This document shows positions 8,548 through 32,034 of a stretch of 34,663 nt of DNA, piece by piece. A model generated the notes under the pieces. The model worked only from the letters and a program-made list of their open reading frames with translations, was not told the origin of the DNA and searched no databases. A program made the position numbers and the translations under genes. The DNA is from a virus: the UHGV virus genome UHGV-0173140; one strand, written 5' to 3'. Each line of letters begins with the position of its first letter. Within the stretch, counting starts at the first letter, position 1.

Positions 8548-8859
8548 ATGAAACCGAATGAAAATATTACACAACTGGATATTGCTTTTGGACCTAAAAA
8601 CATTGCTGAATTTCTCCCGGCGATGGGTAGTATTCCGAAAGAATTTTTCGAAAATTCTAACCCGTGGAATCAGTGGGTCAGCAAATGGTTTTTCAATGGT
8701 CTGAAAGAATACGCGGTTGCTGTTAAAGGTGTGGATTTTAAACAGGCCCACGCACACATCAGCGTGATTCTGGGTAGTTTCGAACCTAAACACGAACATA
8801 AAATTGCCGGGTGTGCATATCTTGCGTCAATGTGGTTTGTACCGGAGACAGTTAAATGA
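8548..8859 (+). CDS. hypothetical protein
   Basis: Track ORF 8539-8859; ATG at 8548. Confidence 0.45.
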   Translation: MKPNENITQLDIAFGPKNIAEFLPAMGSIPKEFFENSNPWNQWVSKWFFNGLKEYAVAVKGVDFKQAHAHISVILGSFEPKHEHKIAGCAYLASMWFVPETVK

Positions 8860-9191
8860 AAATAAATATGAGTAATGGTAAAGTAATAATTGACGGTAGG
8901 GAATTTACAGGACGTAAATTTGAAATTAACGGTGATAAAGTAATTGTTGATGGCATACAGGTTGATGGTAATCTGGTTGGTAACATATCGATCAGTGTTT
9001 ATGGTGATGTTGAATCCATTGAAACGACTAACGGTGAAGTTAACATTTCAGGAAACAGTGGAGATATCAAAACGGTTAATGGTAATGTTTCTGTTACTGG
9101 GGATAGCGGTAATATCAAAACAGTTAATGGAAATATTACTACAAAGTCATGTACTAATTCACATTCTATCAACGGTATCATCCGTAACTGA
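8856..9191 (+). CDS. repetitive beta-strand (beta-helix-like) protein
   Basis: Repeated G(D/N)-hydrophobic-alternating pattern: NGEVNISGNSGDIKTVNGNVSVTGDSGNIKTVNGNITT. Confidence 0.45.
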   Translation: MKINMSNGKVIIDGREFTGRKFEINGDKVIVDGIQVDGNLVGNISISVYGDVESIETTNGEVNISGNSGDIKTVNGNVSVTGDSGNIKTVNGNITTKSCTNSHSINGIIRN

Positions 9192-9203: not shown

Positions 9204-9539
9204 ATGAACCATGTAAATGCTATTCGTTGTAATGATGAATATCAATGTTCGCATTGTGGTAAATCGTGGGATATCCACGAAGAAGCACCAGATTGTAAAA
9301 TGACACTGGCTAGTGCAGACGTGTATAAAACGGTCAATTATTTTGGTTTGTCTTTAACTGTTCCTGAAGATATTGACTATATAGCCACGAATAGTTACGG
9401 GGTTGTTTACGGGTATTTTAGTGAACCAGAACTCTGTGATGAATTTTGGGATAATCGTCGTTACGGTATCCCAAAAGTGAGGCTTGCAACTGTAAACCTA
9501 CACGGTCTGGACTGGACGGAGACTCTAAGAGAATGTTAA
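9204..9539 (+). CDS. hypothetical protein
   Basis: Track ORF with SD gaggaag; Cys-containing N-terminus. Confidence 0.45.
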   Translation: MNHVNAIRCNDEYQCSHCGKSWDIHEEAPDCKMTLASADVYKTVNYFGLSLTVPEDIDYIATNSYGVVYGYFSEPELCDEFWDNRRYGIPKVRLATVNLHGLDWTETLREC

Positions 9540-9975: not shown

Positions 9976-10000
9976 AAAAAGCCCCGGACAGTTCCGGGGC
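9975..10000 (-). terminator. rho-independent terminator for the minus-strand operon (gccccgga-cagt-tccggggc, T-run on minus strand)
   Basis: Hairpin 9981-10000; plus-strand aaaaaa at 9975-9980 is the minus-strand U-tract. Confidence 0.6.
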
Positions 10001-10173: not shown

Positions 10174-10428
10174 TTACGATTTTTCTGACTCTTTAAGACC
10201 TAAAACGGCAATTACTTTCACAGCGATACGTTGCGCCAGGTCTAACTGTTGCTGACTTAATTTCCCGGTAGTCATCACTGCCATGATCCCACTCATTGAA
10301 CCCAACGCTTTAAAATCGTTAAATGCCGACTTCATGATCACTTCTTGACTGTGACCTTCGTCTACGATTACGTGTGCGCGTAACCCCAGACTTTCGACTA
10401 CTTTGTCTACCCCTTCATTCTTCGTCAT
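10174..10428 (-). CDS. hypothetical protein
   Basis: Track ORF; last long gene of the minus-strand operon. Confidence 0.45.
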   Translation of the reverse strand: MTKNEGVDKVVESLGLRAHVIVDEGHSQEVIMKSAFNDFKALGSMSGIMAVMTTGKLSQQQLDLAQRIAVKVIAVLGLKESEKS

Positions 10429-10918
10429 CTTCGTTTACCTTATTTTTGGCTACTTTTGGTTGCTCACGAGGATCATTCATCGGGGGCCACGGGCTGATAT
10501 TTTCACGAGTTTCCACAGGTTCAGGTTCTGTACCTAAAAACTTACTGACAAATTCACCAGCAAAATGTGAAGTGTCGCTGACATAAACATGCATCCTGTC
10601 CAAATCAGCCTGACTAATTGAATTAGGTGCAATATTAATTTTAAATTGATGGAAACCAACATACATCACATTAACAGGTCGTTCGATTGTCCCCGGTGTC
10701 GGGGGAATCACACCCAAAATCCAACAGTAATGAAAACGACCATCACCCATCGGTTCACAACCAGCGTTAAGCCAGCTTACCTTCGGATGAGGAAACATTG
10801 TTGTTGAGTCAGTGGCATCCCGACGTAATGACCACTCCACACCACCAATGTTAATAGTGCTTCGCGGTTTCATACCGTTAAACTGGGTGACACCCATACC
10901 TGCGTTAATATTCTGCAT
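10415..10918 (-). CDS. hypothetical protein
   Basis: 167-aa track ORF; acidic C-terminal tail NEDDEE. Confidence 0.45.
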   Translation of the reverse strand: MQNINAGMGVTQFNGMKPRSTINIGGVEWSLRRDATDSTTMFPHPKVSWLNAGCEPMGDGRFHYCWILGVIPPTPGTIERPVNVMYVGFHQFKINIAPNSISQADLDRMHVYVSDTSHFAGEFVSKFLGTEPEPVETRENISPWPPMNDPREQPKVAKNKVNEDDEE

Positions 10919-10934
10919 GTCGGTTTCCTGTTAG

Positions 10935-11294
10935 TTACATCTTTTTAAGTGCGTGGATACAGGCTGCAGCCAGATCTGTTAGCTCTTTTTTAATACCAGA
11001 CGTCGAACCTTCGGTTTTTTCTTCCATCAGTTCGCGATATTCCATTTCAACAATGGACATCATCCCGCCGGGCTTATCGTGGTACGACGCCCAAGTCGAA
11101 GGAGGGTTATCCATACGTGCTTTAACATGGGCCATAACTGAACCATGTTCGCTAACAGAGCTATCATGATGAAATACTCCCATCGTGTCCGGGTGATGCC
11201 CGTGGTGATAATGATGGTGGTGATGAATTTCTACATCTTCCTCTTCATCGTCATCATCGTCTTTTTTGATAACGTAATACGGTTTGTAATGCAT
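10935..11294 (-). CDS. His-rich acidic protein
   Basis: KKDDDDDEEEDVEIHHHHHYHHGHHPD...FHHD; 119 aa. Confidence 0.5.
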   Translation of the reverse strand: MHYKPYYVIKKDDDDDEEEDVEIHHHHHYHHGHHPDTMGVFHHDSSVSEHGSVMAHVKARMDNPPSTWASYHDKPGGMMSIVEMEYRELMEEKTEGSTSGIKKELTDLAAACIHALKKM

Positions 11295-11344
11295 ACTCTC
11301 ATCTCCTGTTAAAGCGCCCCGTACAGAGGCGCTTAGTTGACCAA

Positions 11345-12043
11345 TTAGCAGCAGCCAGTCGGTGGAGTTTGCGGAGTAGGCAGCTTGAAGTTAATAAGCT
11401 GATCGACCTGGTTAATTTTGCACGCCAACTGAGACGTTTGTGACAATTGAGACAACTGGAAGTCACGGGTTTGAATCTGAGATTTCAGGTCACAAATCAG
11501 AACAGCCTGAGACTGTGCGAACTGGTCACGGATCAGTGCACGAGTTGCTTCCGCTTGACGTTCAATGTTCAGGTTGGTTTCGCAGCAACACTTCTCAGCC
11601 GCTAACTGTGCCTGGAAAGAACGAGTCAGTGCCGCAGTTTCAGATGCACAGATCGCATTGGTCACAGTGTTAGTACCCTGTTGAATCTGCGTGTTCAGAC
11701 CTGCAAAACCTTGAACGTTTGCCAGCAGGTTTTGTGTGTTCTGTTGGGTCAGACCGTTATAGGTAGAAGCTGCTGAGCGTTCAACAGTCAGGTTAGTACC
11801 ATTCTGACCCTGAATGTTAGCAAGTGACGCCGCATTAATAGCCTGAAGAATAGCGTTAGTATCCAGAGAGTTCTGAACAACAACACCTTCAGCAGCACCA
11901 ATACCACGACCACCCCAACCACCGCCACCACCCCAGCCATTACCGAACCAGGAACCGATAAGACCGCCGATACCACCACCAAGTGCAGCCGCGCCAGCTT
12001 CACCGCCGAAACCGCCAGTGGGAACTAAAGTCATGTCAGACAT
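11345..12043 (-). CDS. Gly-rich / Gln-Asn-Thr-rich protein with C-terminal Cys residues
   Basis: N-terminus GGFGGEAGAAALGGGIGGLIGSWFGNGWGGGGGWGGRG; C-terminus ends TGCC; aggag SD. Confidence 0.5.
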   Translation of the reverse strand: MSDMTLVPTGGFGGEAGAAALGGGIGGLIGSWFGNGWGGGGGWGGRGIGAAEGVVVQNSLDTNAILQAINAASLANIQGQNGTNLTVERSAASTYNGLTQQNTQNLLANVQGFAGLNTQIQQGTNTVTNAICASETAALTRSFQAQLAAEKCCCETNLNIERQAEATRALIRDQFAQSQAVLICDLKSQIQTRDFQLSQLSQTSQLACKINQVDQLINFKLPTPQTPPTGCC

Positions 12044-12050
12044 GTTGAAA

Positions 12051-12101
12051 CTCCTGTGAGAGAATGTTAATTAACTGTAACCGATCGGTTACTTACAGGA
12101 G
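12051..12101 (-). promoter_or_regulatory. 5' leader stem-loop able to sequester the SD of the Gly-rich gene; contains 16-bp perfect palindrome gtaaccgatcggttac (12077-12092)
   Basis: Arms ctcctgt (12051-12057) and acaggag (12095-12101) are complementary; one arm carries the aggag SD. Confidence 0.4.
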
Positions 12102-12127
12102 TATAAACGCGTTACATTAATCTAACA

Positions 12128-12175
12128 GATAATTTACAAACATTTATAATGTAATTTGTCAAGAATTAAAAAAGA
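12128..12175 (-). promoter_or_regulatory. conserved promoter copy, minus strand (TTGACA; reverse complement of 12157-12162)
   Basis: Reverse complement reads ttttttaattcttgacaaattacat; -10 element uncertain. Confidence 0.45.
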
Positions 12176-12198
12176 AAACAGGCGGGAATAATCCCGCC
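12163..12198 (-). terminator. rho-independent terminator after terL (ggcggga-ataa-tcccgcc plus T-run on minus strand)
   Basis: Hairpin 12181-12198; minus-strand tgttttctttttt follows. Confidence 0.55.
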
Positions 12199-12205
12199 AC
12201 ACTGT

Positions 12206-13969
12206 TTAAAAAATGTCACCGTATTCAGGAGTACCAACAGGATTCACACCACCAGTAAATGGTTCTTCAACGAATTCGGTACGTTTTGGTGATAGTGCAA
12301 TAACCGCAGCATCGAAAAAGTTTGGCGACTTACTTCCATTTGGTTTTTTGTCGATCACAATCTTCCCGGCACCGTTACTGGTATATGTTGGCTGACTTAA
12401 CTCAGCTTCTAACCGTTGTGCATTTTCCAGTGACGGATCAATCAGAATGATTTCGTCCGGATCCTGTGGTTGACCTTCCACATACCATTTATAAATTCGC
12501 TGACATCGCAGACGTAACGCCCACGATGCCTGTGCTTTATAATTTGAAAAATAATCTTTGTTTGATTTACGGTCTTTGTCACCAGGTTTCGTACCACCGA
12601 TAATATCACCGCCCGGATCCACAACTTTTCCATTCGGTAACCACGGGCGCACACGGAAGCGTAAAGTATCTTTCCGGTCGTTTGCCGCTACTTTAACGCC
12701 TGTACCAACACCGTTAACTTCGTACCAGTATTCATCAACACCCAGCATATTAGCCATCGTCAACATCCCTGGTGCAGCCAGTTCAGCGCCCCTGTGGTCA
12801 AGCTGCAAATGTGTCAGGAATACACCGTGAGCAATTACCAGTGCGCTTGCGTCTTCACCACCGTCTGCGGCATCCTGTCCGGCGATACGTTGACCTGTTG
12901 GTGTAAGTAGTCCGTTAGCTTTACGCCATTCTGTGTCACGGAAAGCATCAAAAGCAGCGCGCACCCATTCAGCTTTAATCAGTACACCCTGAACAGCAGC
13001 GGCATAATCGCGGTCAACTTCCTGTGCGAAAATATGCTGTAAACCTTTTTCAGCGAACGATTGTTTTTCTCGTTTATACCATTCGTCGTCTTTAGCCGGG
13101 TGATCACGCCAGTCCAGAACCATGACACGCAATTTACCACGGGGTAATTTCTTACCCGGTTCCCATTCCAAACCAGCTTTACGATTACGATAAAAAACGT
13201 TACCAACACCGTTAACTGAACTGATGTCGATACGAACGTTGGTGTTAGCTGACAATGACGCTTCAATCAGTTCAGGACGATCTACGTGTGCCGCTTCATC
13301 CAAGAAATAGACAGACTTACGACCACCACGACCAATATTGTCACCAGCTTCACCAGTAATTGTTGCACCGTTTTCTGGGTTGATACATTTCATGTAAACC
13401 AGATGGTCTTTTTCACGCAGACCAACAGGACGTAATTCCGGTGGTAATGCGCGAATAATCTGGCGAATCTTTTCAAAAATACTATCAGGGTCGCCCAGCT
13501 TATCGACAAGCTGTTCTTTACGTGAACCCCAGCCAACTGAAGAACCAGGACGATACAGCCACGCCCACACGGACAAACCACAGGCTACCCAGGTCGCGCC
13601 ATAATCTCGCGATTTTTCCCAAAGCCCTTTTTCTTTGTCTTCAAGTGCTTCATAAACAAACTGAACCATGTCAATCTGACGTTCGAAAAGGCAGAAAGGC
13701 ATGTTGGGTGGATATTCAGTACCAACATTACGCGGGTCATAAGTAAACGCCCAGTCCAGAATGAACGCTACCGGGTTTGTTTCGTAATATTTTTTCAATA
13801 CCGGGACAATTGCCCGATCCGTGCGCATACGATTTAACAGGTTAATACGGTCAATGTAACACTGTTTGTAATCCGGTCGTGGCTGACCTTTTCGCCAGAT
13901 ACGTTCGTCATTTGCGTAGGCATCACGCCAGCGCGTGTAATTATGAACATTTCCAGTAAACTTATTCAT
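12206..13969 (-). CDS. terL: terminase large subunit
   Basis: Walker A-like KSRDYGAT, Walker B VYFLDEAAH and a C-terminal nuclease-like region; start set at MNKFTG (13969) because the longer track ORF (to 14194) would run through the plus-strand promoter at 14032. Confidence 0.8.
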   Translation of the reverse strand: MNKFTGNVHNYTRWRDAYANDERIWRKGQPRPDYKQCYIDRINLLNRMRTDRAIVPVLKKYYETNPVAFILDWAFTYDPRNVGTEYPPNMPFCLFERQIDMVQFVYEALEDKEKGLWEKSRDYGATWVACGLSVWAWLYRPGSSVGWGSRKEQLVDKLGDPDSIFEKIRQIIRALPPELRPVGLREKDHLVYMKCINPENGATITGEAGDNIGRGGRKSVYFLDEAAHVDRPELIEASLSANTNVRIDISSVNGVGNVFYRNRKAGLEWEPGKKLPRGKLRVMVLDWRDHPAKDDEWYKREKQSFAEKGLQHIFAQEVDRDYAAAVQGVLIKAEWVRAAFDAFRDTEWRKANGLLTPTGQRIAGQDAADGGEDASALVIAHGVFLTHLQLDHRGAELAAPGMLTMANMLGVDEYWYEVNGVGTGVKVAANDRKDTLRFRVRPWLPNGKVVDPGGDIIGGTKPGDKDRKSNKDYFSNYKAQASWALRLRCQRIYKWYVEGQPQDPDEIILIDPSLENAQRLEAELSQPTYTSNGAGKIVIDKKPNGSKSPNFFDAAVIALSPKRTEFVEEPFTGGVNPVGTPEYGDIF

Positions 13970-14031
13970 GATTATCGGTCCGTTTGTAACTATTCTGTAC
14001 AGTTTACCACGGGTGATTGGTGGTGACAGAG

Positions 14032-14074
14032 ATTTAAAATAATTCTTGATAGATTGCTCATGTATCTGTATAGT
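14032..14074 (+). promoter_or_regulatory. conserved promoter copy (TTGATA 14045-14050, -10 tatagt 14068-14073)
   Basis: gatttaaaataattcttgatagattgc; followed by a ~220-nt leader. Confidence 0.5.
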
Positions 14075-14303
14075 TGTTGTCATAGACAAGATACCTGACC
14101 AAGTATGTAGTAACCCGGAATTGTCCGGCTGAAGATACCGCTGATTGTCAGGCGCTACGGTGAGTATAAAGCGTAACTCACCCCACGAAATCACACACTA
14201 TGCATCATCTGGTTGGATGGTGGTTCCTGCGGGGATTGTGAAATTAGTTGCGACGGGTTGAAGAGATATCTTGTCACTAAACAAAAACAAGAGGGTCGTG
14301 AGT

Positions 14304-14990
14304 ATGAATATTGTTAACAGCTTGATGAAAGACTTACTTATTTCCGGTGGTTGGTCTGAAAGCTGTGTACAGATGTATCAACATGATTATGTAAAACCGA
14401 ATATTATTGAAACATACATTCAAGAAAACAAAAACAAGAGAGTCATGAGTATGAAAATCACTAAACAAGAACTGAAAAATTTTGGTGCATGTCAGGAAGG
14501 TTTTAAACGTTTCATCATTCAGACTAACAACACTGACGAACCTGTTGAAGTTATTAGTCTAATCGGTGGCAAAAATACCGTTTCAGACTTGTTATGGTTA
14601 GCCGGGAAAATCTTACCAAAAGAAAAAATCGTTCGGTTCGCTTGCGATTGTGCTTTGTTGAACATTGAATTAATTCGACCTTATACGAATGACTTTAATC
14701 TGATTCAGGATTTTCTTAATAACCCGTCACAAAATGCTGCTCGTGATGCTGCTGATGCTGCTCGTGCTGCTGCTGCTGATGCTGCTGATGCTGCTCGTGC
14801 TGCTGCTGTTGCTGCTGCGTATGCTGCTCGTGCTGCTGCTGTTGCTGCTGCTGCGTATGCTGCTCGTGCTGCTGATGCTGCGTATGCTGCTGCTGCTGCG
14901 TATGCTGCTCGTGCTGCTGCTGCTGCTCGTGCTGCTGCTGCTGCTCGTGCTGATATTAACAAACTGTTGGTGAAACTTTTCACTGAGTAA
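14304..14990 (+). CDS. hypothetical protein with C-terminal Ala-rich (AARxAAD/Y) low-complexity repeats
   Basis: ATG 14304 (track 14271, TTG); the leader aaaaacaagag(g/a)gtc(g/a)tgagtATG is duplicated in frame at 14430-14453; C-terminal ~70 residues encoded by GCT-rich repeats. Confidence 0.5.
   Translation: MNIVNSLMKDLLISGGWSESCVQMYQHDYVKPNIIETYIQENKNKRVMSMKITKQELKNFGACQEGFKRFIIQTNNTDEPVEVISLIGGKNTVSDLLWLAGKILPKEKIVRFACDCALLNIELIRPYTNDFNLIQDFLNNPSQNAARDAADAARAAAADAADAARAAAVAAAYAARAAAVAAAAYAARAADAAYAAAAAYAARAAAAARAAAAARADINKLLVKLFTE
14735..14952. repeat. imperfect trinucleotide-type repeat (gct gct cgt/gat/tat) about 220 bp
   Basis: Direct reading; produces open shadow frames on both strands (track ORFs 14705-15112 and 14734-14973). 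Confidence 0.8.
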
Positions 14991-15012
14991 AAATTACTGG
15001 AGCGCGTCGAAC

Positions 15013-15195
15013 ATGGGCGATAAACCAACTCTGACACCGTGGCGGATCCGTTTAAATGGTGATGACGTTGCGACGATTTACGCTTATCAGGATAAACCAC
15101 GAAATTTAGCACTGGGGCAATACGCGCAATTATTCATGTTATCGTCCTGGCAGATTGTGCAACAAGCATTGGGGAAGATTAAAAGGGGTTATTGA
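15013..15195 (+). CDS. hypothetical protein
   Basis: Track ORF with ggag SD. Confidence 0.4.
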   Translation: MGDKPTLTPWRIRLNGDDVATIYAYQDKPRNLALGQYAQLFMLSSWQIVQQALGKIKRGY

Positions 15196-31971: not shown

Positions 31972-31992
31972 CTGCATCAACGAAAGGCGAGT

Positions 31993-32034
31993 GTAAAATA
32001 ATTCTTGACAGATTACACAACACCTTTTAAAGTT
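31993..32034 (+). promoter_or_regulatory. conserved promoter copy (TTGACA 32005-32010, -10 taaagt)
   Basis: gtgtaaaataattcttgacagattacac; second of two tandem promoters. Confidence 0.5.

Follow-up and report, generated by a model that had tools for sequence, protein, structure and literature searches.

Genes and boundaries of the P1-P5 cassette

The subject of this analysis is a compact cassette of five genes, here called P1 to P5, on the minus strand of the UHGV virus genome UHGV-0173140, of which the whole 34,663-nucleotide stretch presented (the window) was analysed. Sequence comparison gives the window 98% identity to Escherichia phage KarinMuster (Bas82) and vB_EcoS_PJ16, and about 86% to the Salmonella phages Sasha and Sergei; these relatives are 9NA-like siphoviruses of the genera Nonanavirus and Sashavirus. 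The genes described in the initial annotation (P1-P4) are all annotated as 'hypothetical protein' in Bas82, and a literature search gave no description of the cassette. The features of the locus, in the direction of transcription, are as follows.

12206-14194, minus strand: terL (662 aa from a GTG start in the mechanical open reading frame (ORF) list)
12181..12198, minus strand: intrinsic terminator ending the terL unit, directly 5' of the operon (7-bp stem with 6 G-C pairs, then a T-run)
12146..12172, minus strand: promoter motif copy TTTTTAATTCTTGACAAATTAC, with its -35 element TTGACA at 12162-12157 (motif search)
12100..12105, minus strand: -10-like TATACT in the cassette's own regulatory region (upstream alignment of five lineages)
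12077..12092, minus strand: stem-loop GTAACCGATCGGTTAC in the 5' untranslated region (UTR), ~33 nt before the P1 start codon (lineage alignment)
11345-12043, minus strand: P1, ORF of 232 aa
11312..11334, minus strand: GC-rich hairpin AAGCGCCTC...GGGGCGCTT followed by TTT, between P1 and P2 (RNAfold)
10935-11294, minus strand: P2, ORF of 119 aa
10415-10918, minus strand: P3, ORF of 167 aa, overlapping the start of P4 by 14 nt
10174-10428, minus strand: P4, ORF of 84 aa
10009-10158, minus strand: P5, ORF of 49 aa with its own ribosome-binding site AAGGGGG
9981..10000, minus strand: intrinsic terminator closing the operon (8-bp stem with 7 G-C pairs, then TTTTTT)

The initial annotation had described a promoter-driven operon of four genes between terminators, inserted between terL and the portal gene. 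Both terminators and the promoter motif are present, but the operon holds five genes, P5 having been missed; its position is as described, but six genes on the opposite strand also intervene before portal. In other lineages a terminator likewise precedes the cassette, and equivalent closing terminators follow it in phages Greed, yong3, KarlJaspers and PY100. All five proteins belong to PHROGs without an assigned function (E = 3e-7 to 2e-123; 1e-46 or better for P1-P4), and P1-P4 are conserved in other phages down to about 30-40% identity; because of this PHROG membership and the protein-level conservation in distant phages, we take P1-P5 to be real genes rather than chance ORFs. Scans of all five proteins against Pfam, NCBIfam, PADLOC and PHROGs returned only PHROGs of unknown function, and with the PDB searches included no characterised family was matched, in agreement with the initial annotation, which had recognised none.

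Distribution, mobility and decay

Synteny is strict: at least seven lineages of cultured phages, as well as distant metagenomic ones, have the genes in the order P1-P2-P3-P4. The unit is present in >100 sequenced phages of Escherichia, Salmonella, Shigella, Yersinia, Klebsiella, Edwardsiella and relatives, and the cultured GenBank phages that carry it are exclusively Enterobacterales phages; a few records name Campylobacter, Aeromonas or Chlamydia as host, but these appear to be coliphage sequence under a wrong label. The usual site is the tail-fibre end of the late region. P1-P4 lie directly 3' of the tail-fibre genes in Seuratvirus and Nonagvirus (Greed, yong3), come after the genes for the lateral tail fibre and its chaperone in the Drexlerviridae genera Hanrivervirus and Tlsvirus (KarlJaspers, Bas06), and follow host-specificity, tail-fibre and gp38-like genes in Edwardsiella phage eiAU (Eiauvirus). 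In Yersinia phage PY100 they form an isolated four-gene block amid early genes, and in an N4-like contig (L040) they stand directly after the virion RNA polymerase gene.

Among 34 IMG/VR loci recovered with a P3 profile, 29 keep all four genes in order, and most of 19 further viral contigs found through distant P3 relatives show P1-like, P2-like, P3-like and ~70-aa P4-like genes in the same order. On the distant metagenomic contigs the cassette often follows a large ORF of about 750-1,140 aa or lies beside genes read by eye as holin, endolysin or spanin. P5 is confined to Nonanavirus/Sashavirus and some Seuratvirus loci.

Degraded versions are frequent. Of P1-P3, phage 9NA retains only the C-terminal half of P3, which is its gp13 (96% identity). 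The T5-like Epseptimavirus phages RA40 and SE24 (L008 4752-5297, L010 3851-4396) lack P2-P4 and retain a frameshifted P1 remnant just 3' of the L-shaped tail-fibre gene, still preceded by the regulatory region of the cassette. A further protein cluster (P0160; 11 Seuratvirus-like contigs of up to 61.5 kb) joins the first two-thirds of P1 in frame to the last half of P3, a P1::P3 fusion that arose by deletion at a common 'IER' microhomology (...NLNIER(Q) in P1, ...TIER(P)VNV in P3). Several T1-like phages have a truncated P1 of about 125 aa, and loci L017, L037 and L046 are broken. Since decay is so frequent, the unit is conditionally dispensable. The cultured Enterobacter phage N5822 (MW032452.1, 78 kb and probably N4-like by its size) has two separate P3-family matches, which hints at a duplicated or second cassette.

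Phage morons carry their own promoter and terminator and are inserted between conserved genes, e.g. in lambdoid phages. The cassette resembles them in having its own promoter motif and flanking terminators between the conserved terL and portal genes, and in being present, absent or degraded among close relatives, with an insertion site that varies among phages. Unlike morons, it comprises five genes in one operon, has a hairpin inside it and a 5'-UTR stem-loop that covaries, and resides in virulent rather than temperate phages; its four-gene core, moreover, is conserved across phage families into distant metagenomic lineages.

Regulatory signals and predicted products

The initial annotation placed the operon behind a copy of a conserved promoter, and this is borne out: the motif AATTCTTGACAnATTAC has four copies in the window and five in the Bas82 genome. 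In the window a 22-nt form, AAAATAATTCTTGACA(G/C/A)ATT(A/G)C, occurs at 4482-4508 (+), 31990-32016 (+), 25111-25085 (-) and 12172-12146 (-). Of the five Bas82 copies, one precedes the cassette and the others stand before the blocks with dUTPase, with exonuclease/annealase/polymerase, with ParB and with small early-type genes; the structural cluster at 14-32 kb contains no copy. The motif probably marks an early or middle regulon of 9NA-like phages, and since its other copies all precede non-structural blocks, the cassette is predicted to be expressed with the non-structural genes in this phage. A generic sigma-70 scan missed the cassette promoter because of its poor -10, which is either TGTAAA at 18 nt or else TAAATT at 20 nt.

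The region 5' of P1 has a common layout in five lineages, namely a -10-like TATGCT or TATACT, a 16-nt GTAAC-N6-GTTAC, TTAACAA and a ribosome-binding site; the TATACT may act as a promoter element. The exact 16-nt palindrome occurs only once in the window. A hairpin is found at the equivalent site in 16 lineage variants, with compensatory changes from GTAAC/GTTAC through GTAGC/GCTAC to GTGGC/GCCAC, three G-U variants and 98.8% of alignment cells paired. The covariation score was reached by none of 500 shuffles, for an alignment that was hand-trimmed around the hairpin and so leans towards structure, and in which independent changes are few; this evidence is supportive rather than conclusive of a stem-loop conserved as a pairing RNA element. 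The G-U variants speak for a stem-loop in RNA rather than an operator in DNA, and GTAAC-N6-GTTAC, considered as the operator of a known host regulator, could not be matched to one. Only a few bases separate it from the -10-like element, so the stem-loop would stand at the extreme 5' end of the message, a position at which stem-loops stabilise E. coli mRNAs. Tandem TTTACA direct repeats with 10-11 nt spacing (e.g. TTTACAAAACTTTACAT) lie ~70-110 nt 5' of P1 homologues in Seuratvirus, Hanrivervirus and T5-like phages (loci L004, L005, L007 and L010) and are absent from the window; possible readings are overlapping -35 elements and a site of the response-regulator type.

The second hairpin, between P1 and P2 (RNAfold -17.6 kcal/mol), has the form AGCGCC...GGCGCT followed by a T-run and is kept in 10 of the 12 lineages examined; the annotation of phage AVIO78A gives it as a terminator. 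It may be attenuator-like and cause partial termination, which would fit the drop in codon bias after P1. With approximate Sharp-Li E. coli weights, the codon adaptation index (CAI) of P1 is 0.558, second among 33 Bas82 genes (major capsid 0.584, scaffold 0.465), compared with 0.20-0.39 for P2-P5 and 0.27-0.28 for holin, endolysin and Rz. P1 likewise exceeds the other cassette genes in Greed (0.557 versus <=0.32) and KarlJaspers (0.38 versus <=0.28). The CAI gap and the two hairpins together suggest that much P1 and little P2-P5 is made.

P1 has the composition given in the initial annotation, a Gly/Trp-rich N-terminus, a Q/N/T-rich body and a CC terminus (GCC). In the family alignment its N-terminus, MSDMTLxPTGG, is highly conserved, and a Gly-zipper-like segment follows (G22-G26-G30-G34-G38-G42). 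GxxxG was discounted as evidence of a glycine zipper: it is present in 119 of 120 homologues, yet is expected by chance where about half the region is glycine. AlphaFold, run on a 38-sequence alignment, leaves residues 1-61 unstructured and predicts a single helix of ~158 residues (62-219), along which the predicted local distance difference test score (pLDDT) rises from 56 to 92, and a Pro-rich tail. Neither a Foldseek search of the PDB with this fold nor PDB and Pfam sequence searches gave a match for P1, and PDB matches to Ricin B, Psb31 and a de novo TIM-barrel in the P1, P3 and P4 searches were compositional only. A CCC motif within 'QAQLA...CCC' is kept even in distant metagenomic relatives. 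C207 and a C-terminal Cys occur together in 82 homologues, are both missing from 35 and never occur singly, which suggests a disulfide or a common metal site, few independent events perhaps underlying the pattern. P1 homologues have been labelled 'putative sugar-binding protein' (BASEL) and 'lateral tail fiber chaperone' (PJ16), and no supporting text was found for either label.

These properties bear on whether the cassette encodes an accessory virion fibre or decoration, with P1 an abundant, disulfide-linked fibrous particle protein, P2-P4 its assembly factors, and the whole dispensable in the laboratory. Such a role would fit the codon bias of P1, close to that of the major capsid protein, its long predicted helix, paired cysteines that would oxidise outside the cell, and a weak match (E = 4.6e-4) to a PHROG whose annotation reads 'virion structural protein', as well as the position directly 3' of tail-fibre genes in Seuratvirus/Nonagvirus, Tempevirinae, Eiauvirus and T5-like phages and a frequency of decay resembling that of dispensable fibres. 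However, the same P1 N-terminus is found in T1-like, 9NA-like, Seurat-like and eiAU siphoviruses and in N4-like podoviruses, and a docking site common to such unrelated particle architectures is unlikely. The operon here also uses a promoter class seen only before non-structural genes, a MazG-like enzyme, as proposed below for P2, has no obvious part in fibre assembly, and a literature search gave no virion mass spectrometry of any cassette-bearing phage. We therefore consider a virion role unlikely, and the suggestion of an unusual virion component in the initial annotation is disfavoured by the movement of the unit between siphoviruses and N4-like podoviruses and by its promoter type.

The architecture of P1 also recalls i-spanins such as lambda Rz, with a hydrophobic N-terminus, a long helix, a Pro-rich stretch and near-C-terminal cysteines able to form intermolecular disulfides, and the initial annotation had raised a lysis component. 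A spanin-like or holin-modulating P1 could aid envelope disruption or set lysis timing, and several distant metagenomic cassettes adjoin genes read by eye as holin, endolysin and spanin. Against this, a full lysis cassette of holin, endolysin, Rz and Rz1 lies elsewhere in Bas82, 98% identical to the window, and eiAU likewise has a full one of its own elsewhere. P1 lies outside that lysis cassette and is unaccompanied by an o-spanin gene: no lipobox-bearing ORF lies within or adjoins P1 in the window ORF list. Its N-terminus is a weak transmembrane candidate, its codon bias is far above that of the lysis genes, and no sequence similarity to i-spanins was found. An accessory lysis role is on this evidence improbable.

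P2 consists of a variable N-terminal part, acidic and His-rich, and a conserved C-terminal domain of ~70 aa. In the window the former reads DDDDDEEED then HHHHHYHHGHH, as the initial annotation had described. The His run is lineage-specific: Hanrivervirus, Seuratvirus Greed, PY100 and many metagenomic members have it in reduced form or not at all. A scan of the window against Rfam gave only a sub-threshold match to mir-598 (34 bits, gathering score 69) at 11192-11261 (+), opposite the His/Asp-coding repeat of P2; this is, almost certainly, repetitive sequence matched by chance. The C-terminal domain carries PPxTW and E85-x-x-E88-(15)-E104-x-x-D107, in which E85, E88 and E104 are invariant and D107 nearly so among 29 family members. 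The acidic metal-binding motif of MazG-like enzymes has the form ExxE-(12-28)-ExxD. The P2 family profile finds PDB 2p06 (AF_0060) with E = 0.0019, a value partly inflated by the His tag of the construct; against untagged AF_0060, which itself passes the Pfam MazG threshold at 29.4 bits, hhalign gave P = 7.8e-4 and a probability of 25% over 60 columns. Sub-threshold Pfam matches of the 29 members were to PRA-PH in eight cases (best E 0.0077) and MazG in five (best E 0.0019). P2 thus resembles the MazG-like, all-alpha nucleoside triphosphate pyrophosphohydrolases (PF03819, PRA-PH PF01503) in its acidic motif and these aligned columns, and differs from them in the shortness of the domain, the variable acidic and His-rich or basic extension that precedes it, and matches that stay below curated thresholds. 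Judged by motif and profile, it is probably a MazG-like nucleotide pyrophosphohydrolase.

If so, P2 might hydrolyse a nucleotide pool or an immune signal in counter-defence or host takeover, with P1 as a stoichiometric binder or scaffold and with acr-aca-type regulation by way of the inverted repeat and the 5' stem-loop. The intact ExxE...ExxD motif, the very high expression signals of P1, which would suit a stoichiometric inhibitor, and the mobility between unrelated phages and frequent loss typical of anti-defence genes are all consistent with this. Small mobile genes behind a strong early-type promoter, and an inverted repeat or stem-loop close to where the mRNA begins, are also reminiscent of acr-aca operons, but the main product here is a 232-aa fibrous protein of low complexity, unlike known small globular inhibitors. 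Nor does the cassette show detectable similarity to known anti-defence proteins: models of defence and anti-defence systems were unmatched except for a weak PADLOC match of P4 to residues 375-432 of GajA (E = 0.004), most likely a chance one. P4 as a helix-turn-helix autoregulator was discarded, as profile searches of the PDB and Pfam gave no helix-turn-helix signal for it, and family scans gave none for P2, P3 or P5. Two BASEL phages with the cassette, Bas82 and the Tlsvirus Bas08, have been reported to be markedly sensitive to restriction-modification, and Bas82 also to Old; general protection by the cassette is thus not evident. Overall we find a counter-defence role unlikely.

The composition of the cassette proteins had led the initial annotation to suggest, very speculatively, a secreted, microcin-type product or a metal-binding one, for which the Gly-rich N-terminus of P1, the His run of P2 and the Cys clusters of P1 and P5 would speak. 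A class II microcin is made as a short precursor with a leader ending in GG, and its gene adjoins those of a C39-peptidase ABC exporter and an immunity protein. P1 has 232 aa, and its first 11 residues, MSDMTLVPTGG, read directly from the sequence, depart from the double-glycine consensus, which calls for hydrophobic residues at -4 and -7; P1 has Pro and Thr there, respectively. In none of the loci or lineages examined does the annotation show an exporter, a C39 peptidase or an immunity gene next to the cassette. Metal binding through the His run fares no better: the tract is missing or reduced in most P2 relatives, whose conserved part is the MazG-like domain, and the Cys and His residues of P3 are conserved in close relatives and not in distant ones. 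The family alignments largely refute this proposal, which we regard as highly improbable.

P3 is predicted by AlphaFold to be globular, with an antiparallel beta-sheet, a C-terminal helix and a disordered acidic tail (pLDDT 76.6, near 90 in the core). The fold had no match, and single-sequence and profile searches of the PDB gave nothing meaningful. An exhaustive profile search matched only 54 clusters among 1.84 billion representative proteins, nearly all of them standalone proteins of about 45-220 aa, the shorter ones being fragments. When ten distant matches were compared with Pfam, nine were standalone and without a family, and one of 1,741 aa gave weak families. P4 has a conserved motif, TGKLSxxQ...RIAVKV, in alignments, and profile searches of the PDB and Pfam returned nothing meaningful for it. 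P5 combines a Cys-rich N-terminus, MCCRTSCCLGSPATQ (MCCRTSCC...), with an aromatic C-terminus, matches phrog_25697 (E = 3e-7) and has relatives of 54-67 aa; between the window and Seuratvirus Greed it is 47% identical, with MC..T.CCLG.PATQ invariant. To judge by these comparisons P4 and P5 are orphans.

Candidate role of the cassette

The interpretation we favour, tentatively, is that the cassette is a host-directed, horizontally mobile, moron-like accessory module of virulent Enterobacterales phages, built around an abundant P1 that would associate with membranes and serving perhaps in exclusion, envelope control or counter-defence. Its boundaries, promoter class, synteny and decay variants support this, as do the P1 codon bias, the 5' stem-loop, the post-P1 hairpin, the coupled cysteines, the P2 motif and the existence of a separate lysis cassette. 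Most likely it targets the infected cell and belongs neither to the virion nor to the canonical lysis machinery, and any specific role is much less probable than this general reading. The kind of module is known; its content, its multi-gene conservation across families, its RNA signals and its capsid-level codon bias are unusual.

A possible course of events is that host RNA polymerase initiates at the cassette promoter, that the 5' stem-loop stabilises the message and that the hairpin past P1 lets only part of transcription through; stabilisation and attenuation of this kind would leave P1 very abundant and P2-P5 scarce. P1 may bind the inner membrane through its glycine-zipper-like, fusion-peptide-like N-terminus and self-associate along the long Q/N-rich helix, held by its cysteine clusters through disulfides or bound metal. 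The assembly might then alter the envelope so as to exclude rival phages or tune lysis, with the MazG-like P2 and with P3, P4 and P5 serving as low-copy cofactors or regulators. Superinfection-exclusion genes such as T5 llp and T1 cor lie next to receptor-binding genes and are single small lipoprotein genes whose products have signal peptides. The cassette resembles them in being autonomous, dispensable and, in several lineages, beside tail-fibre genes, and possibly in being early, and differs in having four or five genes and no recognisable export signal.

A number of observations weigh against the host-directed module and its proposed membrane association. No homology ties P1-P5 to exclusion, lysis control or any other function. 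Most other lineages carry the cassette at the end of the tail-fibre (late) region and several metagenomic phages carry it beside lysis genes, positions that would fit a late, structural or lysis-related role as well. The P1 model is of moderate confidence overall (pLDDT 65), and hydrophobicity along its helix lacks clean heptad periodicity, so that we do not regard it as a canonical coiled coil. Across 120 homologues the best 19-residue Kyte-Doolittle window of the P1 N-terminus is borderline (median 1.14, maximum 1.68); values of 1.5-1.7 are reached in some close and distant relatives, the distant ones ranging from 0.9 to 1.6. Summed insertion energies of the N-terminus are positive in distant relatives, using approximate Hessa-scale values, and P1 has no visible Sec, Tat or lipoprotein signal. 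None of the 29 P2 members reaches the curated Pfam cut-off for MazG or PRA-PH, and the approximate weights behind the CAI values count against the reading as well.

A more far-reaching proposal, possible but doubtful, is that P1-P4 constitute an unrecognised autonomous system of tailed phages, passed between siphoviruses and podoviruses, in which a flood of a glycine-zipper, cysteine-clustered rod protein is combined with a MazG-type enzyme and two orphans for inter-phage exclusion, envelope remodelling or immune evasion, by a mechanism that would have no described counterpart. The unit is of interest in that its first product is apparently made at capsid-protein levels and its gene order and RNA signals are kept. 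Once its function is defined, five PHROG families would gain an annotation together, and a new means by which virulent phages manipulate the cell envelope or compete with one another could come to light. The cassette is present in BASEL phages (Bas06, Bas08, Bas82 and Queuovirinae members) and natural deletion variants such as 9NA exist, so its role is directly testable.

Some features of the neighbouring genes were noted in passing. Phages Bas82, AVIO78A and 9NA annotate terL as 587 aa (1764 nt), and the true start in the window therefore probably lies 75 codons further in. Divergent from terL is a 239-aa ORF (14271-14990, +) with a weak, sub-threshold Pfam match to DUF6931 (E = 4.6e-4), the C-terminal third of which is a long Ala-rich repeat (AARDAADAARAAAADAADAARAAAVAAAYAARAAA...) that opens long ORFs in other frames (14705-15112, -; 14734-14973, +). 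One of the six opposite-strand genes between the operon and portal encodes a 111-aa protein (9204-9539, +) with a CxxC...C pattern and a weak double zinc-ribbon match (E = 7.6e-4, sub-threshold). Another 111-aa protein (8856-9191, +), for which Pfam gave no match, has short repeats (NG.V.I.G / GNI.TVNGNV) and a beta-helix or bactofilin-like look.

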